Shown: positions 20,214-55,279 of the stretch, piece after piece
How positions within the stretch are numbered: the stretch's first letter is position 1
Layout of the letters: each line of letters starts with the position of its first letter
Assembly: GCA_944350365.1 (NCBI GenBank)
Contig: CALVOU010000001.1
Location: 14,814 to 78,813, forward strand
Source: an uncultured Bacilli bacterium
Lineage (GTDB): Bacteria; Bacillota_I; Bacilli_A; RF39; UBA660
Direction: 5' to 3'
DNA: 64,000 nucleotides
Notes under the pieces: generated by a model
The model's database searches: none
What the model was told of the DNA's origin: nothing
What the model saw: only the letters and a program-made list of their open reading frames with translations
Translations under genes and position numbers: made by a program

Positions 20214-20480
20214 TACTCAACACCACCTCATAAAAAAACGACTTTCTCGCCTATAAGGACGAAAAAATCGCGGTACCACCTTACTTTATGAATAAATATC
20301 CATACTCTCAACTTCTTAACGCGAATAACGGATAAACCTACCTATCGATCTATCAGTTCCAGAACCATCTATCATACTTCCTTTATATCCCATTTCACCA
20401 ACCGAGACTCTCTTCTCATAAAATCCATATGACTCTTTCTTTCAAAACTTTTATATCTAGAGATTATATCATAAAGATTT

Positions 20481-26305: not shown

Positions 26306-26354
26306 CTTGAATCACCCCTACCTACTTCTTTTTTCGTAAAAACAAGCAAAAATT

Positions 26355-26368
26355 ATTTCCCGGGAAAT
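26355..26368. promoter_or_regulatory. Isolated Noc-binding-site palindrome ATTTCCCGGGAAAT, about 50 bp upstream of the pth start
   Basis: A perfect 14-bp NBS consensus, extended to an 18-bp palindrome TTATTTCCCGGGAAATAA. It sits in the rsmI-pth intergenic region. Confidence 0.5.
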
Positions 26369-26385
26369 AATTTTCAAACATAAAT

Positions 26386-32921: not shown

Positions 32922-33368
32922 TTAAGAACGTTTTTCACGAAAAAAATCTTTTACTAAATTCGAAGTTTCTTCCTCTAGAATACCACCAATAAGTTCAACT
33001 GTATTTCCATACGACCGCGTCGAAAATATTTTTTCAACTAATTCAACATCATTTGTATTAGCAACTGTTCCATAAACGACTTTTGCTATTCTAGATTGGG
33101 CAATAGCACTAGCACACATTGGACATGGCATCATAGTTACATACAAAATACAATCAATTAACCGCCAATTTTCTAATTTTTCAGAAGCTTCCATAATACA
33201 ACCTATCTCAGCATGAAAAATTGCACAATTTTTTGAATCTTTCTGATTATGTGAAGAAGCGATCACTTGATTATTCTTAACTAAAACCGCTCCTACCGGA
33301 ACTTCACCATTTTGATAAGCTATTTTGGCTTCTTCTAAAGCTAAACCCATAAATTCTATATCATTCAT
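32922..33368 (-). CDS. tadA: tRNA-specific adenosine deaminase
   Basis: The CDA motifs HAEIGCI and PCPMCASA are present. The start is set at MNDIEFMG (33368) with a GGGAGAA RBS. The listed 175-aa ORF begins earlier at 33449, and that N-terminal extension overlaps the ffs RNA gene. Confidence 0.85.
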   Translation of the reverse strand: MNDIEFMGLALEEAKIAYQNGEVPVGAVLVKNNQVIASSHNQKDSKNCAIFHAEIGCIMEASEKLENWRLIDCILYVTMMPCPMCASAIAQSRIAKVVYGTVANTNDVELVEKIFSTRSYGNTVELIGGILEEETSNLVKDFFREKRS

Positions 33369-33384
33369 ATATATTCTCCCAAAA

Positions 33385-33465
33385 AAAAGTGCACATAAAT
33401 ATGAAATGTTAAGGCTGCTATCTTCCGATCCTGACCTGGTTCCACCCATATTTATTGCACATCAA
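33385..33465 (-). ncRNA. ffs: Signal recognition particle RNA (small 4.5S-type SRP RNA)
   Basis: The minus strand reads ...GGGUGGAACCAGGUCAGGAUCGGAAGAUAGCAGCC... This matches the universally conserved SRP RNA domain IV (ACCAGGUCAGG..GGAAG..AGCAGCC). Closing helix: GUGCAAUAAAUAUG pairs with CAUAUUUAUGUGCAC. A U-tract follows. Confidence 0.7.
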
Positions 33466-33479
33466 TATTCTAATATATT

Positions 33480-33532
33480 TTATCCACAATTTCAACAAAA
33501 ATGCAAAATTTTCTATTATTTTTTTATCCACA
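33480..33532 (+). promoter_or_regulatory. Two perfect DnaA boxes (TTATCCACA at 33480-33488 and 33524-33532) between ffs and the parS array
   Basis: Exact 9-mer consensus, same orientation. Further boxes lie at 34130-34138 (TTATCCACC, one mismatch) and 35275-35283 (perfect). Confidence 0.5.
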
Positions 33533-33543
33533 ATTAAATTTAA

Positions 33544-33559
33544 TGTTTCACGTGAAACA
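33544..33559. promoter_or_regulatory. parS site 1 (TGTTTCACGTGAAACA)
   Basis: Exact 16-bp parS consensus palindrome. Confidence 0.8.
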
Positions 33560-33662
33560 TCGAACAGAAATTTTATGCTAAAACACTACTTTTAAATGTT
33601 AAAAATAATAATATATTTGTCACTCTACATAAAATTACAACTAAAAGTTAATTAGCCGACAA

Positions 33663-33678
33663 TGTTTCACGTGAAACA
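33663..33678. promoter_or_regulatory. parS site 2, paired with NBS at 33692-33705
   Basis: Exact parS. It is followed by TGTGTATAA and then the perfect NBS ATTTCCCGGGAAAT. Confidence 0.8.
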
Positions 33679-33928
33679 TTGTGTATAAATTATTTCCCGG
33701 GAAATAATTTTTTATTCATTTCGACAAAATGGCAAGAATTAATATATATCAAAAAAAAATATCTTAGATCTTAGTATCGATTATATTCTTTAAATAACAA
33801 TACAATGGCTTTTCCCAAAAAAAAATAATAATTACCCGCTAAATAAACAATAACTATGTCTTAATGTACTCCCTTTCACAGAGAAACTTCAGAAAATTCA
33901 ATAGAGAAAGAGAGAACTAAAAAATCAA

Positions 33929-33944
33929 TGTTTCACGTGAAACA
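33929..33944. promoter_or_regulatory. parS site 3, paired with a variant NBS ATTTCCCAGGAAAT at 33958-33971
   Basis: Exact parS. The adjacent NBS has one mismatch. Confidence 0.75.
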
Positions 33945-34192
33945 TTGTGCATATTTTATTTCCCAGGAAATAATTTTTCGACTAATTTAACAAACAACAA
34001 TATAAAATCCTCATGCGTTAAATTAATTTAAAACTAAATACATGACTTTGGCACACATACAACCAAACATTTTTATAAAAAAGCATCGACAACTACTTAA
34101 TCAATCAATATCAAAGGAATTATCCACCGTATAAAATTATTAACGGGTACAATAAATAAACTTACACATATAATATAAAGTTAACAATTCAA

Positions 34193-34208
34193 TGTTCCAC
34201 GTGAAACA
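34193..34208. promoter_or_regulatory. parS site 4 (TGTTCCACGTGAAACA, the B. subtilis-type variant), with no adjacent NBS
   Basis: A 15/16 match to the palindrome. It is identical to the classic B. subtilis parS. Confidence 0.75.
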
Positions 34209-34362
34209 TTGAGGAAAAAACATTTCAAAAAAAGCAGCAAATATAGGCTAATAATATGATATTTCTTAAAAAAAATCATAATCCTATAAAACATACATCT
34301 ATAAATCGTTTAAATGACACTCTCGTTAAGAATTTTACAAATAAATAAAACTATTTGATGAA

Positions 34363-34378
34363 TGTTTCACGTGAAACA
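34363..34378. promoter_or_regulatory. parS site 5, paired with NBS at 34392-34405
   Basis: Exact parS plus a perfect NBS. This is the duplicate of the site 2 unit. Confidence 0.8.
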
Positions 34379-34609
34379 TTGTGTATAAATTATTTCCCGG
34401 GAAATAATTTTTTATTCGTTTCAACAAAATGGCAAGAATTACATCTTAGAACATAGTAACGATTATATTCCTTAAATAACATTATAATAGTTTTTCGCAA
34501 AAAAAATAATAATTACCTGCCAAATAAACAATAACTACATCTCAATGTACTCCCTTTCACAAAGAAATTTTAGAAAATTCAATAGAAAAAGAGAAAACTA
34601 ATAGATCAA

Positions 34610-34625
34610 TGTTTCACGTGAAACA
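34610..34625. promoter_or_regulatory. parS site 6, paired with NBS at 34638-34651
   Basis: Exact parS plus a perfect NBS. Confidence 0.8.
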
Positions 34626-34893
34626 TTGTGTATATTTATTTCCCGGGAAATAATTTTAAAGCATTTTATTTTTACTAATAATAACTTCCTTATCTGAGCA
34701 TAACTAAAAAACATATTACCGTTTTAAGAAAAAATATTTATTTACAACAAACACAATATAAATTTTTATTTGAAATTTCCTACAATAAAAATATTTTCTT
34801 AATATGATCTTATCTTCTATGCAAAAGCTAAATCCTACTGATAAAGCTTTCAAGATTATAATTTAATCTTCTATTAGAACTTTCACTATCTAA

Positions 34894-34909
34894 TGTTTCA
34901 CGTGAAACA
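34894..34909. promoter_or_regulatory. parS site 7, paired with NBS at 34923-34936
   Basis: Exact parS plus a perfect NBS. Confidence 0.8.
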
Positions 34910-35153
34910 TTGTGCATAAATTATTTCCCGGGAAATAATTTCCTAACTACTATAAGTACAAAAAATTTTAATAATAATTCATCACCATATCCAATATAGA
35001 CCAACTCAAATAAATTATAACGGATAATTTCAATTTAAAATAAATAAGAAAATTCTATAAATAAAATAATAGAACGAGCATTAATAATTAAAAATCCAAA
35101 ACTTCTAACAATAATAATCATAATCTATATTCTATATAAAGAATAATTAACAA

Positions 35154-35169
35154 TGTTTCACGTGAAACA
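35154..35169. promoter_or_regulatory. parS site 8, with no adjacent NBS
   Basis: Exact parS. Confidence 0.8.
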
Positions 35170-35333
35170 TTGTGTATAAAATATATATTTAAGAAATAAA
35201 TCTTTATTCATAATTTTAGATTCCTATAAAATCGATAAGTAATTACTATACTAAATACACAATGCTAATTTATTTTATCCACAAAGCGGTGGAATCAATA
35301 TGGCACAAAAAAACATAGACCTTAAAAGATCTA

Positions 35334-35349
35334 TGTTTCACGTGAAACA
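35334..35349. promoter_or_regulatory. parS site 9, lying 9 bp downstream of the gyrA stop
   Basis: Exact parS. It lies between the gyrA stop codon and the putative gyrA terminator hairpin at 35305-35332. Confidence 0.8.
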
Positions 35350-35357
35350 TGCGAATT

Positions 35358-37802
35358 CTATTCCACTGTTTCCTCTTCTGCTTCATCCGTTTCTGAAGTA
35401 CTATCAATTACAGATACAGTAGCAACACGTTGATCATCCTTCAAATGGATTAATCTCACCCCTTGCGTAGCTCGTTTAAGTGTAGAAATCTGATCCATTG
35501 GCATTCTCATGATTATACCATTATCAGTAATAATAATTAAATCATCAGCATCTGTAACAGCTTTCAATGAAACCATACTTCCATTCTTTTCTGTAATATG
35601 TAGCGCCATAACTCCCTTACTACCACGGTGAGTTAATCGATACTCATCAACTTCAGTTTTCTTACCATAACCATTAACAGTAACAACTAAAATTTTCTGA
35701 GAGTTATCCACAACTTCGCCACCAACGGTTATCGCACCATCTAATTCCATTCCTTTAACACCAGAAGCAGTTCTTCCCATTACACGAATTTCTTTTTCAC
35801 TAAATCTAACCATACGTCCGTTCGATGCGCCTATCAATACTTCATTCTCACCTGTCGTTTTACGAACAGAAATTAATTCGTCATCTTCTTTTAACGTTAT
35901 AGCCAACTTACCACTTGATCTAATATTATCAAATTCAGATAAATTCGTCCGTTTTACTAATCCATTCTTAGTAATAAATAACAAATAATTGAACGAATGT
36001 TCGCTAGCTTCTAGAGTAACAACAGAACTTATATATTCTTCTTTCTCAAGAGGAAGTAAATTAATGATAGGTAGTCCCTTACTCTGACGACTGTATTCAG
36101 GAATTTCATACCCTTTCATCCGATATACCTTACCCTTATTCGTAAAGAATAAAATATAATCATGAGTACTCATATTAAGCATTTTCTCCACAAAATCCTC
36201 TTCGTTAGTCGTCATACCTTTTATACCTACACCACCACGATTTTGTGTACGATAAGCATCAACAGGCATACGTTTAATGTACCCTTTATTCGTTAGTGTG
36301 ATCAAAGTCTGTTCTACTGGAATTAAAGACTCATCTTCGATATATTCAATAGCTGTCATATCAATTGTTGTTCTACGTTCATCACCATATTTATCTTTAA
36401 TTTCTAATAATTCATTTTTAATAACTTCCAAAATCTTTTCATCACTACTCAAAATTAACCTTAGCTCCCCTATTAACTTCAATAAATCGGCTAATTCATT
36501 TTCTATTTTCTCGCGCTCTAATCCAGTTAATCTTCTTAACTTCATCTCTAGAATCGCATTAGCTTGAACCTCAGATAAGCCAAATTTCGACATTAAACCA
36601 GATCGAGCCTCGTCATCAGAATTAGCTGCTTTGATTAATTGAATAATTTCATCAATATTATCAAGAGCTATCTTTAATCCCTCTAAAATATGAACACGTT
36701 TTTCAGCATTCTCCAAATCAAAACGAGTTCTACGAATAATTACTTCACGTTGGAAATCAATATATTTTGCGATAATATCCTTTAATCCTAATGTTTTAGG
36801 AACACCTTGATCAAGCATAAGGAAAATAATACCGTAACTAACCTGAAGACTTGTATGCTTATATAATTTATTCAAAACAACCTGAGCATTAGCATCTTTC
36901 TTCAACGTAATCGTAATCTTAATTCCATCTTTTAAATCAGAATGGTAGTCTGAAATTCCTTCAATTGTCTTGTTATGAACAAGCTCAGCAACCTTGTTTT
37001 TTAAATCCAAAGTATTAATTCCATAAGGTACTTCTTCAATAATAATATATTGTTTACCATTCTTTTCCTCAATATGAGCCTTACTACGTATAGTAATAGA
37101 CCCCCTACCTGTTTCATAAGCTTTTCTAATACCACTATTTCCTAAAATAGTAGCACCAGTAGGAAAATCAGGTCCTTTTACATACTGCATTAACTCATTT
37201 AACTCAATATCCGGGTTATCAATATAAGCCACACAACCATCAATAACTTCACCCAAATTATGAGGTGGGATGTTTGTAGCCATACCAACGGCAATACCTG
37301 TAGTACCATTTACTAAAATATTCGGGAATCTAGAAGGTAAAACAACTGGCTCCTTTGTAGATTCATCGAAGTTTGGAATAAAATCAACAGTATTTTTATT
37401 AATATTTCTAAGTAATTCCAAAGAAATCTTCGAAAGTCTAGATTCCGTATATCGCATGGCAGCTGCGCCATAACCTTCAATATTTCCAAAGTTACCATGA
37501 CCATCTATCAACATGTAGCGATAAGAAAAATCTTGAGCCATTCTTACCATTGCTTCATAAATAGAAGAATCTCCATGAGGGTGATAATTACCCATAACCT
37601 CACCGACAGTTTTCGCACTTTTTTTATGAGGCTTATCAGGAGTATAACCAGACTCATACATAGAATATAAAATTCGACGATGAACAGGTTTTAATCCATC
37701 ACGAAGATCAGGAATAGCACGAGCAGTTATAACACTCATCGAATAATCCAAAAAGGAATCTTGTACTTCTTTTACAATATTATTGTGTTCTAATCTATCC
37801 AT
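35358..37802 (-). CDS. gyrA: DNA gyrase subunit A
   Basis: 814 aa. It has an active-site Tyr region, a QRDR-like segment ([17 protein letters not shown]), C-terminal beta-pinwheel repeats and an acidic tail. Confidence 0.95.
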
Positions 37803-37814
37803 TTAATAAACCTC

Positions 37815-40869
<3,055 letters not shown>

Positions 40870-40984
40870 AAATTACACCCTAAAATCATCGATAATCACC
40901 TTTTTTCAAAACTAGTACTCCCATACTTGCACATATATTATACCACGAGTAATCGGCTAAAACTACAAAAAAAAGGAAAAAGCC

Positions 40985-41437
40985 TTAACTTTTTTCCACT
41001 TTTCTGGAGTCTAATAGACACTGTAGACGACTCGCTCTTAAAATCTGATTTTCTAACGAAAGTTTAGAAACAGGAATAACAAGTTCTTTGCCATTTTTAA
41101 AAATAACTTTTGTTCCCTTAGAATCCCCAAGTATTCGATCAATAGAATGTAACGAAAGCCAAATACAATCATATGAACTAGGCGATGTAGTTGGAAAAAA
41201 GATAATCCCTCTTGTTTCTTCAACAATAATGGGTAACTTATAATTAAAACCTAACATCTTTTTGCTTCCTTCTGCTCGTCCTTGATAACTACTTCCAAAA
41301 TAACAACAACTATAATCCATCACTTCATAGGCATTTTCTTCTAGAATACTATCTGTTTGATACTCCATAATTTTCGTTTTATTTGGCTCTATCCCAATAA
41401 CTGCCATTGTTTCATTATTTACCTCATATTTATTCAT
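40985..41437 (-). CDS. comK: ComK-family competence transcription factor homolog (short form)
   Basis: 150 aa. It aligns with B. subtilis ComK (YEVNNETMAVIGIEP..., SCCYFGSSYQGRAEGSKK, IIFFPTTSPSSYDCIWLSLHSI). It sits between dnaN and recF where Bacillus has yaaA. Confidence 0.6.
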   Translation of the reverse strand: MNKYEVNNETMAVIGIEPNKTKIMEYQTDSILEENAYEVMDYSCCYFGSSYQGRAEGSKKMLGFNYKLPIIVEETRGIIFFPTTSPSSYDCIWLSLHSIDRILGDSKGTKVIFKNGKELVIPVSKLSLENQILRASRLQCLLDSRKVEKS

Positions 41438-46577: not shown

Positions 46578-46651
46578 ACTAGTTTAGACTAGTTTTTTCA
46601 TTTGAAAAAATGTATGCAAAAATCATAAATTAGTTTTTAATAGCCCAAATT

Positions 46652-46665
46652 ATTACCTGGGAAAT
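46652..46665. promoter_or_regulatory. Degenerate NBS-like palindrome ATTACCTGGGAAAT upstream of mnmE
   Basis: A 12/14 match to ATTTCCCGGGAAAT in the jag-mnmE intergenic region. Confidence 0.25.
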
Positions 46666-46765
46666 AATTTCTATCTCAAAATTAGGAATTTTAATTAGGA
46701 AATAAGGGGTAAAATTTCTGTGATATAATAGATACACAAGAAACGAAAGAAAAGAGGAGTAGAAT

Positions 46766-48121: not shown

Positions 48122-48181
48122 AAATATTCATAGCAAAAATTGATTTCATATAACATTTTTTCTTATTTAAACGCAGAAATT

Positions 48182-48195
48182 ATTTCCCGGGAAAT
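48182..48195. promoter_or_regulatory. Isolated perfect NBS palindrome ATTTCCCGGGAAAT in the mnmG promoter region
   Basis: It lies about 30-45 bp upstream of TATAAT-like elements (48213-48230) that precede mnmG. Confidence 0.5.
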
Positions 48196-48250
48196 AATTT
48201 TCTTCTTTCTATAATAAAAATATAGTATAATATGAAACGGTAAAAAGGAA

Positions 48251-50820: not shown

Positions 50821-52260
50821 ATGTTAAAGTATTATAAAAATGTCGTAAAATACAATGAAGATGTTTGTTATGGCGTTGGAATCATAACCGGTTGGAAATC
50901 TACCGATATGATTTTGGATAGTTTAAGTGAAGAAGTAAAGCGCAAAATAGTAACTTGTGGGAACTTATATACAAAAAACGGAATCAATTATATTATTGCC
51001 AATTTATTTTTAAATCCCCAGATTACAGAATTAATCGTTTTAGAAGATTCTTCTTTACAAAATGAAATGGCGGAAGGAATAACTGCTCTTTTAGAATTCT
51101 TAACCACTAACGAATTAACATTTGAATCAAAATTTCAATTCACTGAAGAAAATTTAACGCAATTTACGAAATATTTTAAAGATCATATTAGAGTAGTAAA
51201 AAGGCAAGATCTAGAGCAACAACTTAAACAAATTGATATTCCAGAAAAAGATTGGTGTAAAATTACCGAAATAAAAGAAAATCCATTAGAACTCCAGCAT
51301 CAGATTCCAAGTGAAAAGGTAGGCTTTACGGTAAGAGCCAATACCGCTTATGAAGCATGGAATCGAGCGTTAAAATTAATCCATACTTATGGCTATTTAA
51401 AACCATCTGATTATGATGAGAATCAATTAGAATTAATCAACTTATCGATTATTGTTAGAAACGAGGATTTAGCTAACCCCAGTATGGCCGGAGTAATTGA
51501 TATCACTCGGGAAGAATTAGAAGAATATGAGAAAAATATTCTTTCTAAAGAAAGACCAGACGGAGTAAAGTATACATATGGAAGTCGTTATCGAGATCAA
51601 AATGGGAAAGACCAATTTCAATATATGGTAGATACCTTAAAAGATAAGCCATTTTCTAGAAGGGCGGTTGCTACTCTTTGGGTTCCTACTATCGACATCG
51701 AGGAAGACGAAGTTCCCTGCCTTGACTTATATCAAGCGATTATTGAAGGAGAATATCTCCATCTTCTTACTTATATTCGAGCAAACGATGTCTATAATGG
51801 TTGGCCGAGAAATATCTATGGCATTTTAAAAATTCAAGAAGAATTATGCCAACGTCTTGGCTATCAAAAAGGATACGTAAATACCATTGCCGGAAGTGCT
51901 CATGTTTATGGGAGAAATTTTGATGATTTAGAAAAAAAATTCAATGAGAAAGAGGTATCCTTTTGTGACGAAGACGAAAGAGGATATTTTACGGTAACGA
52001 TAGAAAACAACCTAATTCAAGTTACTTTCTATAGTATAACAGGACAAGAACTCCGCAGATTTACAGGCACGAGTGCTACAGAATTAAGAAATAAATGTAC
52101 TCTTTATATAAGTAACATCGATCATGCTTTCTATTTAGGACAAGAGTTAATGAAAGCTGAGTTGGCACTTAAAAATCAACTATTCTATGTACAAGATCAA
52201 TCATTAGATTTAAAATCAAAACAGAAAACATTAAGTAATCCACTAAAATTTAATGATTAA
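50821..52260 (+). CDS. Thymidylate-synthase-fold protein with a roughly 160-aa N-terminal extension
   Basis: Residues from about 165 to 430 align with the ThyA core. The Cys-loop is PCLDLYQ (PCH in canonical ThyA). IRANDVYNGWPRNIYG matches QRSCDVFLGLPFNIAS, with Arg, Asp and Asn conserved. GSAHVYG matches GDTHLY. Confidence 0.55.
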   Translation: MLKYYKNVVKYNEDVCYGVGIITGWKSTDMILDSLSEEVKRKIVTCGNLYTKNGINYIIANLFLNPQITELIVLEDSSLQNEMAEGITALLEFLTTNELTFESKFQFTEENLTQFTKYFKDHIRVVKRQDLEQQLKQIDIPEKDWCKITEIKENPLELQHQIPSEKVGFTVRANTAYEAWNRALKLIHTYGYLKPSDYDENQLELINLSIIVRNEDLANPSMAGVIDITREELEEYEKNILSKERPDGVKYTYGSRYRDQNGKDQFQYMVDTLKDKPFSRRAVATLWVPTIDIEEDEVPCLDLYQAIIEGEYLHLLTYIRANDVYNGWPRNIYGILKIQEELCQRLGYQKGYVNTIAGSAHVYGRNFDDLEKKFNEKEVSFCDEDERGYFTVTIENNLIQVTFYSITGQELRRFTGTSATELRNKCTLYISNIDHAFYLGQELMKAELALKNQLFYVQDQSLDLKSKQKTLSNPLKFND

Positions 52261-52368: not shown

Positions 52369-53502
52369 ATGGATAGAGAAGTAGTGGATTTATATTTGGA
52401 TGACATTATCCCTAACCGTTTTCAACCACGTGAAGTATTTAATGAACAAGCTTTGCGAGAATTAGCTGACTCTATTAGAGCACATGGAGTAATACAGCCA
52501 ATTATCGTTAGAAAAATAGGAGATAAATACGAAATTATTGCCGGAGAAAGAAGATATAAAGCATCTGCGATGGCTGGTCTAACTAAAATTCCGGCAATTA
52601 TTAGAAATTTAGATGATAAAGAGACTTCAAAGGTGGCACTACTCGAAAACTTACAAAGAAAGGATTTAACACCGATCGAAGAAGCTAGAACGTATCAAAA
52701 AATACTAGAACTTGATTCGATGACACAAGAAGAGCTCGGACGTACTATGGGAAAATCCCAAGCGGCAATTGCCAATAAGATGCGTTTATTATCTTTACCT
52801 GATGAAGTTCAAGAAGCACTACTTCATGATCAAATATCAGAAAGACATGCTAGGAGTTTATTGAATCTAGATTCAAGAGAAGATCAAATAAATATGCTTC
52901 ATGCTATCATTGAAAAAAGAATGACGGTTAGAGAATTAGATAATGAAATTAGAAAATTAAAAGGCATTGAAGAACCAACTTCAAGCGAGGGTAATTTAGA
53001 AAGTACTGATCAAGGAGGAACTTCCATTTCCACTACTCCAGAACCAATTGAGATTCCAAGTCCAGTTACTCCTTCTAATCCAATGACAAGTACTAATCCT
53101 AATATTTCACGACCTCCGATAGATTTACTTGCTTCATCTAATCAAACAAGTTCTAAAGTAGAAGTATCTTCACCAAATTCAACTGTAGTTAGCACTCCTA
53201 AACCAGTTGTTAGAAATATTCTTACTCTATCAGATGACGATGAAGAAGATTTTACTCAGTTAACTCCAGAGCAAGTTTCATCAACTCTAGCTAATACTGA
53301 AGAGGGAGAACCCGAGGTAAAATACAATGATCCAGTCGAAGAATTATTAGATGATGAAGAATTATACTCATTGAAAGATGCCGTAAAAGAGTTAAGAAGA
53401 ACGGTAACTAATCTCGAAAATAGGGGCTTTGTTATTAAAGTCGAAGAATTAGATTTCGAAAATACTTACCAAGTAGTAGTAAAAATCAATAAAGATATTT
53501 AA
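52369..53502 (+). CDS. noc: Noc-like ParB paralog (nucleoid occlusion protein-like)
   Basis: It has the ParB N-domain (IQPIIVRK...IAGERRYKA) and the Noc-type recognition helix GKSQAAIANKMRLL (Noc GKGQSTIANKLRLL). A 120-aa Ser/Thr/Pro-rich linker precedes the C-terminal domain. There is no N-terminal amphipathic helix. Confidence 0.65.
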   Translation: MDREVVDLYLDDIIPNRFQPREVFNEQALRELADSIRAHGVIQPIIVRKIGDKYEIIAGERRYKASAMAGLTKIPAIIRNLDDKETSKVALLENLQRKDLTPIEEARTYQKILELDSMTQEELGRTMGKSQAAIANKMRLLSLPDEVQEALLHDQISERHARSLLNLDSREDQINMLHAIIEKRMTVRELDNEIRKLKGIEEPTSSEGNLESTDQGGTSISTTPEPIEIPSPVTPSNPMTSTNPNISRPPIDLLASSNQTSSKVEVSSPNSTVVSTPKPVVRNILTLSDDDEEDFTQLTPEQVSSTLANTEEGEPEVKYNDPVEELLDDEELYSLKDAVKELRRTVTNLENRGFVIKVEELDFENTYQVVVKINKDI

Positions 53503-53598: not shown

Positions 53599-54402
53599 AT
53601 GGGAAAGATAATATCATTAGTAAATCAAAAAGGTGGAGTAGGAAAAACGACAACGAGTATCAATCTTTCTGCATCTTTAGCTTACTTAGGAAAAAGAGTA
53701 TTATTAATTGATTTAGATCCCCAAGGAAATGCGACAACAGGTGTCGGAATTAATAAAGGAGATATCAGTAAAAGTGTTCACGATGTAATAACAGAGAAAT
53801 GTAATGTAATAGAGGCAATTATTAAAACAAAATATAAAAATCTTTATCTTTTGCCAGCAACAATTAATTTAGCAGGTATCGATATTGAACTTATGGAAAA
53901 GAGCAAGACAGATCAAAATTTCTCCAAAAACATTCAATTAAAGAAAGCGTTGGATCCGATTAGAGATTCTTTTGACTACATCATCATTGACTGTCCACCT
54001 TCTTTAGGGTTAATTACAACCAACGCATTAACAGCATCTAATTCTGTAATCATTCCTGTTCAATGTGAATTCTTCGCCCTCGAGGGAATTACTCAACTTC
54101 TTAATACAATTATGTTAGCGCAAAAAAATTTAAATCCTAATCTAGATATTGAGGGCGTTCTGCTGACCATGCTTGATTCACGAGCAATTCTTTGTCTAGA
54201 AGTGGTAGAAGATATTAGAAGATTTTTCAAAGAACGGGTATATAATACAATTATCCCAAGACTCGTTAGAATCGCGGAAGCTCCATCACATGGCACACCG
54301 ATCATCGCCTATGATTCCAAACATCGTGGATCGATTGCTTATTTAAATTTAGCAAAGGAAGTGATTGAAAGAAATGGAAACGCAAACACAAGCACAAAGT
54401 AG
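53599..54402 (+). CDS. soj: ParA-type chromosome partitioning ATPase Soj
   Basis: 267 aa with a deviant Walker A (KGGVGKTTT). Confidence 0.9.
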   Translation: MGKIISLVNQKGGVGKTTTSINLSASLAYLGKRVLLIDLDPQGNATTGVGINKGDISKSVHDVITEKCNVIEAIIKTKYKNLYLLPATINLAGIDIELMEKSKTDQNFSKNIQLKKALDPIRDSFDYIIIDCPPSLGLITTNALTASNSVIIPVQCEFFALEGITQLLNTIMLAQKNLNPNLDIEGVLLTMLDSRAILCLEVVEDIRRFFKERVYNTIIPRLVRIAEAPSHGTPIIAYDSKHRGSIAYLNLAKEVIERNGNANTSTK

Positions 54403-55279
54403 AAGAAAAGCTCTAGGAAGAGGCTTAGAAGAATTATTTAATAATGAACCAATGAACTATGAAACGATAGAAGAAAAAATTATTACGTCAACTCCAAAAG
54501 AAGAAATTGTAGAATTAAATTTATCTGAGTTACGTAGTAATCCTTATCAGCCACGGAAAAATTTTGACGAAAAGGCACTTCAAGAATTGGCTAATTCTAT
54601 TAAAGAATATGGGGTTTTTCAACCAATTATTGCCAAAAAAAGCATCAAAGGTTACGAGATTATCGCTGGAGAAAGAAGAGTAAAAGCATCTATTTTAGCC
54701 GGAAGAGAAACCATACCAGCTATTCTTCGTGACTTCAGTGATCAGGAAATGATGGAGATTGCGCTTTTAGAAAATCTTCAACGGGAAAATTTAAATGCCT
54801 TAGAAGAAGCCCTTGCTTATAAAAAATTGATAGAAGAGTTATCTTTAACGCAAGAAGCATTAGCTGAAAGAATTGGGAAAAGCCGGAGTCATATTACCAA
54901 TATGTTAGGTCTTTTGACTTTACCAGAAGAAGTCAAAGATTTAATCATGGAAAATAAATTGACAATGGGCCATGCTCGAGCACTAAGTAAATTAGAAAAT
55001 CCGAATAAAATCAAAGATCTTGCTCAAAAAGTTGTGATGGAAAATTTAAGTGTTCGTCAAGTAGAAAATTTAGCTTTTGAACCAACTGCTGAAAAAAAAC
55101 ATAAGACTAAGAAAGCACCCAATTCCCTAGAATATCGAAATATAGAAGAAAACTTATCTGAAAAATTAGGAACTAAAGTAAAAATTAATCATAATAAACT
55201 AGAAATTTCTTTCGTCAATCGTAATGATCTAAACCGTCTATTAGAAATAATAGGCATCGAACAAGAAAATGACATCTGA
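54365..55279 (+). CDS. spo0J: Chromosome partitioning protein Spo0J/ParB
   Basis: It has the N-terminal Soj-interacting peptide (KALGRGLEELF) and a ParB box (IIAGERRVKAS). The recognition helix GKSRSHITNMLGLL is Spo0J-type (GKSRSHVTN). Confidence 0.85.
   Translation: MKEMETQTQAQSRRKALGRGLEELFNNEPMNYETIEEKIITSTPKEEIVELNLSELRSNPYQPRKNFDEKALQELANSIKEYGVFQPIIAKKSIKGYEIIAGERRVKASILAGRETIPAILRDFSDQEMMEIALLENLQRENLNALEEALAYKKLIEELSLTQEALAERIGKSRSHITNMLGLLTLPEEVKDLIMENKLTMGHARALSKLENPNKIKDLAQKVVMENLSVRQVENLAFEPTAEKKHKTKKAPNSLEYRNIEENLSEKLGTKVKINHNKLEISFVNRNDLNRLLEIIGIEQENDI

Follow-up and report, generated by a model that had tools for sequence, protein, structure and literature searches.

The gyrA-ffs spacer and its binding sites

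The DNA analyzed herein, a stretch of 64 kb around the replication origin of an uncultured Bacilli bacterium (hereafter referred to as the window), contains between gyrA and the small signal recognition particle RNA gene ffs a non-coding spacer in which nine parS sites, recognized by Spo0J/ParB, are interleaved with five Noc-binding sites (NBS). An earlier note on this DNA had described the region as a gene-free, AT-rich block about 7.5 kb from dnaA, and inspection of open reading frames (ORFs), Rfam and NCBIfam searches, and the base composition were all in agreement with this description. The GC content of the spacer (33467-35357) was 24-29%, no ORF longer than 46 aa was contained in it, with a 70-aa ORF (33325-33537) just overlapping the tadA/ffs edge, and the Rfam scan of the array returned no family, with ffs found at the edge only; a hidden gene or RNA in the spacer was thus rejected. 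Annotation with NCBIfam gave the minus-strand order dnaA, dnaN, recF, gyrB, gyrA, array, ffs, tadA, dnaX and recR, while the other replichore carries mnmE, mnmG and then, downstream, the gene of a Noc-type ParB paralog followed by soj and spo0J, 17 kb from the array. Since the sign of the GC skew switches near 44 kb and exact DnaA boxes flank dnaA, the array was placed approximately 9-11 kb from oriC, an origin-proximal position as expected for a chromosomal parS centromere.

As summarized in Table 1, a search of the window for parS (TGTTTCACGTGAAACA) allowing up to two mismatches yielded nine sites, all within 33544-35349, against 0.03 expected from shuffled sequence, and none was found elsewhere in the 64 kb around the origin at the same tolerance. 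Eight of them were perfect and the remaining one (34193) was the B. subtilis-type variant TGTTCCACGTGAAACA, and this recount exactly reproduced the number and quality of sites that the earlier note had reported beside gyrA. The array sites conformed to the 16-bp parS palindrome TGTTNCACGTGAAACA, were spaced by 119-284 bp, corresponding to about one site per 200 bp over 1.8 kb, and accounted for nine of the 14 CACGTG hexamers in the window.

The NBS ATTTCCCGGGAAAT was found in perfect form at 33692, 34392, 34638 and 34923 and with a single mismatch at 33958. When the palindrome (T)ATTTCCCGGGAAAT(A) was counted over the whole window, two further perfect copies were found outside the array, so that five of the seven copies were concentrated in the array, whereas only 0.30 copies were expected by chance. 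Including their flanks, the array copies were identical to TATTTCCCGGGAAATA at 16/16 or 15/16 positions and formed the core of a 24-bp palindrome, AAATTATTTCCCGGGAAATAATTT; all six CCCGGG hexamers of the window fell inside NBS. Each of the five array NBS sits 27-28 bp, centre to centre, from a parS, again exactly as previously counted, and the identification of the two motifs with the published parS and NBS consensus sequences was also confirmed by exact matches (PMC7383237). Outside the array, an additional NBS-type site with two mismatches was noted in an intergenic spacer (46651-46666), and all three NBS-type sites beyond the array (26354-26369, 46651-46666 and 48181-48196) possess the 24-bp extended palindrome of the array copies. 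Within the array, a segmental duplication has given rise to a second copy of a two-unit block at a distance of about 681 bp, and no tandem array was detected in the window by Tandem Repeats Finder.

Table 1. Binding sites and genes of the window discussed in the text
Feature	Position	Strand	Remarks
parS 1	33544..33559		perfect; no partner NBS; 78 bp upstream of ffs
parS 2	33663..33678		perfect; partner NBS 33691-33706
NBS 1	33691..33706		TATTTCCCGGGAAATA, 16/16; core of 24-bp palindrome
parS 3	33929..33944		perfect; partner NBS 33957-33972
NBS 2	33957..33972		variant TATTTCCCAGGAAATA, 15/16
parS 4	34193..34208		variant TGTTCCACGTGAAACA; no partner NBS
parS 5	34363..34378		perfect; partner NBS 34391-34406; unit 98% identical to parS 2 unit, within ~681 bp segmental duplication
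NBS 3	34391..34406		16/16
parS 6	34610..34625		perfect; partner NBS 34637-34652, offset 27
NBS 4	34637..34652		16/16
parS 7	34894..34909		perfect; partner NBS 34922-34937
NBS 5	34922..34937		16/16
parS 8	35154..35169		perfect; no partner NBS
parS 9	35334..35349		perfect; 9 bp past gyrA stop codon; no partner NBS
NBS outside array	26354..26369		perfect; intergenic
NBS outside array	48181..48196		perfect; mnmE-mnmG spacer
ffs (small signal recognition particle RNA)	33380..33466	-	Rfam; borders array
gyrA	35358-37802	-	NCBIfam
dnaA	42815-44281	-	NCBIfam
Noc-type ParB paralog	52369..53502	+	377 aa; Q173/K179/R201; GERR and ENLQR CTP motifs
soj (ParA-type ATPase)	53599..54402	+	upstream of spo0J
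spo0J/parB	54365..55279	+	304 aa; R173/G201; N-terminal LGRGL peptide; ParB_C domain

The concern that so repetitive a region might be an assembly artefact was answered by three contigs from other samples (L001, L002 and L003), which encode an identical GyrA protein and gave gap-free alignments with the window at 99.8-99.9% identity. One contig covers the five NBS of the array as well as eight of its nine parS, with unchanged spacings. Compared over 33663-41011 of the window, all three contigs terminate within the array or at its border, which indicates that the array fragments short-read assemblies. Arrays of this kind are likely to be systematically missing from, or truncated in, metagenome-assembled genomes (MAGs).

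Several other components were considered for the spacer and rejected. Promoter-like sites were not enriched (15 versus 16.9 expected), a -10-like element of the spacer (TTGTGTATAAATT) was not conserved in other species, and the four terminator-like matches turned out to be extended parS palindromes. Exact DnaA boxes occur at 33480, 33524 and 35275 in the spacer and at 35704 inside gyrA; however, an exact box was present in only 15 of 116 related arrays, and DnaA boxes were therefore dropped as a conserved component. The k-mer enrichment of the arrays likewise disclosed no third conserved motif, yielding the ffs sequence alone, and a phage or mobile origin was rejected on the basis of a complete lack of composite parS-NBS matches in 2.9 million viral contigs. 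The array is bracketed by the two copies (33467-33489 and 35262-35284; 91% identity) of a direct repeat of 23 nt that contains the DnaA box TTATCCACA, and there is an overlap between the first of these copies and the predicted ffs promoter (-35 TTGAAA, -10 TAGAAT, minus strand).

The two ParB-family proteins of the window

Both Noc and ParB are spreading CTP clamps, specific for NBS and parS, respectively (PMC8429893, PMC7053999), and their site preference is determined by a small set of residues, namely R173 and G201 in ParB, and Q173 and R201 together with a permissive Lys at 179 or 184 in Noc, one such Lys being enough for Q173 and R201 to read NBS (PMC7383237). The earlier note had placed genes for both cognate paralogs in the window, and the two proteins encoded there indeed carry the matching residues. 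The Noc-type protein, with the sequence GKSQAAIANKMRLLS...ISERHAR (GKSQAAIANK...SERHAR), has Q, K, S and R at the four specificity positions and thus satisfies the NBS residue rule of Q173, K at 179 or 184, and R201; its best matches among solved structures were the Noc proteins 7NG0, 7NFU and 7OL9, with KorB as a weak match. Spo0J reads GKSRSHITNM...TMGHAR, corresponding to R...G, and was best matched by the structure of B. subtilis Spo0J (6SDK). The GERR and ENLQR motifs are retained in both proteins. With cognate ParB residues, CTP motifs and Soj encoded upstream as the ParA partner, the Spo0J side of the system was in good agreement with a parS centromere.

The Noc-type protein departs from canonical Noc at its N-terminus. 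In the alignment with B. subtilis Noc, residue 3 of the protein falls opposite residue 28, indicating that the helices alpha1 and alpha2 are absent, and no N-terminal amphipathic membrane-targeting helix like that of the Noc system was found. The assigned start codon is credible, since a ribosome-binding site (AGAGGG) and a TGGTATAAT promoter lie just upstream and no frame reaching further upstream is open. The DNA-binding domain is followed by a low-complexity linker of about 130 aa and a short C-terminal domain, which weakly matches the end of the Noc profile (positions 215-255, E = 0.026). Against NCBIfam TIGR04285 (nucleoid_noc), the protein scored 287.1 bits, under the cut-off of 315, the match being interrupted by the linker. 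In characterized Noc proteins, alpha1 is the membrane-targeting helix and a variant without it is impaired in nucleoid occlusion (PMC8429893, PMC7333895), for which this helix is needed (PMC8429893, PMC4331003). The description of the gene product as Noc-like was thus right as to the specificity residues and wrong in so far as it implied a canonical Noc, and because two tests for canonical Noc, the helix and the family cut-off, were failed, we avoid the label "nucleoid-occlusion system". As judged from these features, the array is probably served by a paralog with the DNA-binding type of the Noc family rather than by a nucleoid-occlusion system.

The first 200 residues of the Noc-type protein were used for an exhaustive HMMER search against 1.84 billion cluster representatives, and the following figures refer to the best 150 matches. 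These were 57-91% identical to the window protein, except for one match in two stretches at 53%. Q173 and GERR were present in all 150, R201 in 149 and K179 in 146, and in 147 of them no more than nine residues precede the start of the window protein. Their lengths ranged from 221 to 834 aa (median 486), and the disordered linker between the DNA-binding and C-terminal domains was hypervariable in both length and composition throughout the family (P0121-P0269). We found no description in the literature of a large Noc-type family devoid of the membrane helix. In a neighbour-joining tree, the canonical and helix-less proteins formed a Noc-type group against ParB, in which 90 of 100 bootstraps placed canonical Noc as the sister group of the helix-less proteins; this placement fits either loss or gain of the helix and is not decisive as to its polarity. 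One member, P0194, is a cut protein of 221 aa that combines a Spo0J-type N-terminus (RRALGRGLEELF, NPYQPRK) with a Noc-type DNA-binding domain (GKSQ..NK..R), and may have arisen by natural recombination between spo0J and noc or else as a chimera of the assembly.

The nearest named relative of the Noc-type protein (94% identity) belongs to Candidatus Alloscybalousia (formerly Scybalousia, a name that is a homonym) intestinigallinarum, a lineage filed at NCBI under Bacilli incertae sedis. The earlier note had spoken of related Erysipelotrichia or low-GC sporeformers; as far as one can judge, the organism is neither a member of the Erysipelotrichia nor a sporeformer, and it belongs to an uncultured lineage of the "Bacilli incertae sedis" close to Ca. 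Alloscybalousia.

Related loci and the turnover of the arrays

When 185,579 species-representative genomes were searched for an NBS core located 1-31 nt behind a parS core, at least 120 stretches were obtained, three of which were high-GC chance matches. The other 117 came from low-GC (23-37%) uncultured gut MAGs labelled variously as Bacilli, Erysipelotrichaceae, Tenericutes, Mycoplasma, Ca. Onthousia, Ca. Scybalousia or Clostridium sp. CAG:710, and neither Bacillus nor Staphylococcus was among the matches listed. In a tblastn comparison with the window proteins, gyrA, tadA or dnaX adjoined the cluster in all of them. The place of the cluster was essentially always the same, immediately behind gyrA and either ahead of tadA-dnaX or flanking it on both sides, and GyrA was 52-99% identical to that of the window. 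Conservation at the tadA/ffs-gyrA junction, which had been proposed as a check, was thus observed, the mixed clusters occupying the same syntenic position in nearly all of the 117.

Detailed analysis was performed on 116 of these loci (882 kb together, 8 kb per relative; parS counted with up to one mismatch). parS was almost confined to the array zones (454 sites inside versus 3 outside), and NBS was distributed similarly (311 versus 37), so that 89% of the NBS within about 8 kb lay inside the arrays, an approximately 65-fold enrichment per kb. The median array contained six sites in about 0.8 kb and the largest 23, and ffs sequence was found in or beside the array zone in about half of the loci. 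The Noc-type gene and the array occur on one contig in the window and apparently also in L054 and L069. Single NBS are retained in relatives outside the array as well, at distances from it of about 1.7 kb (behind dnaX) and about 3.1 kb (farther out).

The conserved sites extend beyond the cores, to ATGTTTCACGTGAAACAT for parS and AAA-N-TATTTCCCGGGAAATA-N-TTT for NBS, and the spacer between paired sites varies freely among species while both palindromes are kept. The closest species, L054 (99% GyrA identity), provided a direct view of this turnover: its flanks are collinear with those of the window at 93% and 90% nucleotide identity, whereas inside the array only the parS+NBS units of about 50 nt align, and their number and order differ. 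True tandem arrays of parS+NBS units, 56-474 bp in length, were found in 24 of the 116 loci, examples being L084, in which an 83-bp unit is repeated 13.2 times at 95% with 10 parS and 13 NBS, as well as L005 (62 bp), L108 (56 bp) and L042 (76 bp). Considering the difference in unit number and order between species, the duplicated block of the window and these tandem arrays, we concluded that the arrays turn over rapidly through duplication and deletion, and tandem and segmental duplication of parS+NBS units appears to be how they grow and shrink. The earlier statement that the sites are under selection was well supported, in that both palindromes are kept at the same locus in more than 110 related species in which the intervening sequence has diverged; selection or homogenisation maintains both binding sites while the arrays turn over.

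The centre-to-centre offsets of the pairs had modes at 26-27 and 35-36 bp, with a trough at 30 and none at 41, and this distribution departed from smooth null distributions. Helical phasing of parS and NBS was considered but not adopted: the periodogram was broad with a peak near 12 bp, the alternating arrays had periods that did not correspond to whole numbers of helical turns, and the species, being related, are not independent. For the bimodal offsets in L004-L123, helical phasing, steric packing and shared ancestry come into consideration as possible causes.

Some neighbouring features of the window were also recorded. A 150-aa ORF between dnaN and recF (40985-41437, minus strand) has no NCBIfam match and is conserved, as judged by tblastn, in at least 22 related loci. 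A 479-aa ORF (50821-52260, plus strand) lies between rsmG and the Noc-type gene; its residues 170-369 resemble an archaeal-type thymidylate-synthase-like domain (TIGR03283, below cut-off), and its C-terminal stretch resembles MtrA or dihydropteroate-synthase-like proteins. A T-box leader was identified at 20252-20454 on the minus strand (Rfam RF00230, 98 bits).

A proposed composite centromere and its alternatives

We propose that the locus is a functionally coupled composite centromere for two ParB-family CTP clamps that is shared throughout the lineage, and assign this reading a probability of roughly 0.55. According to this proposal, the nine parS would serve as nucleation sites for Spo0J/ParB dimers, which on binding CTP would close to form clamps and slide away to the outside. 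In this way the partition complex that Soj, and presumably also SMC, makes use of would arise at a distance of about 9-11 kb from oriC. The interleaved NBS, 22-40 bp from parS, would nucleate a second clamp of the same family, the Noc-type paralog. Because this protein is without a membrane-targeting helix, classical tethering of DNA to the membrane seems unlikely for it; loaded at the centromere, it would join or shape the origin-proximal nucleoprotein complex, and we read it as a centromere-associated factor and not as a classical nucleoid-occlusion protein.

Since the sites alternate at 22-40 bp, the two proteins would have to share the same few kb. Both clamp types may co-occupy this stretch, or each nucleation complex may limit the sliding of the other clamp and thus keep the complex compact. 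ParB sliding is blocked, in one direction, by DNA-bound proteins (PMC7053999), and for this reason occupied NBS and parS would be expected to hinder each other's clamps, favouring a compact mixed complex. Super-loading, SMC recruitment, competition and co-assembly at the array, all raised in the earlier note, stand as proposals.

Several observations weigh against a coupled centromere. The site tallies for the source genome refer to the 64 kb window, and other parS or NBS clusters may lie beyond it. The comparison set was preselected for at least one parS-NBS pair per locus (offset 14-44 bp), so that its counts describe paired loci rather than the frequency of pairing in the clade. Four of the nine parS of the window have no partner NBS, the centre offsets in relatives spread over 17-60 bp, and 173 pairs have their NBS towards gyrA as against 144 with the NBS towards tadA. 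Finally, scattered NBS occur in nearby spacers at about one per 21 kb, and the paralog is thus not purely centromeric. A strict protein-protein geometry does not seem to be required, given the varying offsets and polarity and the unpartnered parS. The fixed register of 27-28 bp claimed previously accordingly held for the window genome and failed in its relatives, and a polarity fixed towards oriC, true in the window, was rejected on the same 173 versus 144 pairs; since relatives vary in both respects, the constant offset and the oriC-proximal NBS are local features of the window.

The foremost alternative is co-location without coupling, in which the locus would be an unusually dense but otherwise ordinary parS centromere, NBS would be independently favoured near the origin, where spacers are few and duplication amplifies neighbours, and the paralog would have a job unrelated to ParB. 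Apart from the variation in offset and polarity, this explanation draws on the occurrence of parS without NBS and of NBS without parS, on the NBS in neighbouring spacers, and on the clear evidence that the arrays evolve by duplication. However, the same loci offer many other spacers, and yet NBS is enriched to the extent described above inside the arrays; moreover, the narrow pair spacing of 22-40 bp is kept while the spacer sequence turns over, and the pairing persists down to 52-60% GyrA identity. We therefore regard co-location without coupling as unlikely, albeit as the most serious competitor.

A less probable explanation is that the array is a boundary element, in which the NBS-bound paralog acts mainly as a roadblock or insulator that stops ParB from sliding into gyrA, ffs or tadA, or transcription from entering the array. 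The one-directional block of ParB sliding by DNA-bound proteins (PMC7053999) and the essential, highly expressed genes that bracket the array would be in line with such a role. Its expected layout was nevertheless not observed, in that the outermost sites of the window array are parS without NBS (33544 and 35334), NBS is interleaved rather than flanking, and either site type may be outermost in relatives. A non-binding repeat, be it produced by assembly, of mobile or REP-like nature, or made up of palindromic terminators, could be invoked for the four extended parS palindromes with T-rich tails flagged by the terminator scan (0.3 expected) and for the short-read contigs that break in the array, but is highly improbable in view of the agreement of three independent assemblies, the single syntenic site in more than 110 genomes with its confinement of parS and its absence of viral matches, the conservation of only the exact published binding sites, and the cognate proteins encoded in the window.

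The proposed composite centromere shares with the chromosomal ParABS centromeres of B. subtilis and other bacteria the 16-bp palindrome, the origin proximity, a Spo0J/ParB with CTP motifs, and Soj. Genomes are known to contain from 1 to about 23 parS in origin-proximal positions, S. coelicolor and L. innocua being examples with 20-23 sites (PMC7333895). In contrast, the window holds nine in one non-coding spacer of 1.8 kb, and relatives reach one per 83 bp in tandem; here, in addition, the sites of a second paralog are interleaved, and the place downstream of gyrA is conserved throughout the clade. With the Noc-NBS system of B. subtilis and S. aureus (PMC8429893, PMC4331003, PMC5540599), the locus has in common the NBS consensus, the specificity residues, the CTP motifs, the gene order noc-soj-spo0J and some NBS scattered in nearby spacers, and it differs in that the window paralog lacks alpha1/alpha2 and has the linker of about 130 aa, in a family with total lengths of 335-834 aa, and in that the local NBS lie mostly beside parS instead of being scattered. 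In the canonical system, NBS are dispersed along the chromosome and missing around the terminus; the DNA covered here is that of the origin region.

More distant parallels are found outside these two systems. The sopC centromere of the F plasmid is a tandem repeat of 12 x 43 bp. Both it and the present array consist of dense iterated sites in non-coding DNA, and 24 relatives even have regular tandem repeats; the window array, however, is chromosomal (gyrA-tadA), with the par genes 17 kb away, has irregular spacings instead of a constant repeat period, and combines sites for two paralogs in each unit. RacA of B. subtilis, like the Noc-type paralog, is a second DNA-binding protein with palindromes in the origin region alongside Spo0J-parS, but it is unrelated to ParB and sporulation-specific, and its ram sites, distributed across a wide region near the origin, are not paired with parS. 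KorB of plasmid RK2 also belongs to the ParB-family CTP clamps, and how it behaves on DNA is dependent on a partner, KorA, bound at an operator nearby; that system serves plasmid gene silencing, its partner is not a ParB paralog, and it has no arrayed centromere. We found no report in the literature of parS at one per 80-200 bp in a single spacer or of systematic interleaving of parS and NBS, in keeping with the earlier note, which had known of no description of the pairing. What is new, therefore, is the dense, mixed, clade-wide array and the helix-less Noc-type family, parS centromeres, NBS and Noc having been known before.

ParB-parS and Noc-NBS are the textbook case of a duplicated DNA-binding protein that gained a new site and a new job, and the two sites are usually viewed separately, with parS regarded as the centromere and NBS as dispersed marks that serve division control, while here they are interleaved at one conserved locus. 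The hosts constitute a large group of uncultured gut bacteria of medical and agricultural relevance. A review has asked why parS become numerous and clustered (PMC7333895), and the finding is relevant to this point. The arrays also provide a natural system for studying two ParB-family CTP clamps on shared DNA, including co-loading, mutual blocking and mixed condensates. In practical terms, they could act as compact orthogonal ParB/Noc tagging cassettes, and their cost is that short-read assembly breaks beside gyrA. More tentatively, the helix-less Noc-type proteins might represent a second centromere-binding CTP clamp rather than nucleoid-occlusion factors, in what could be termed a "two-clamp centromere" with alternating loading sites, and might preserve an intermediate stage of Noc evolution at which the switch from parS to NBS had been completed while the protein was still centromeric, before the helix was grafted on in Bacillus/Staphylococcus. 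The order of events in the evolution of Noc, the switch of specificity on the one hand and the membrane helix on the other, thus becomes testable.

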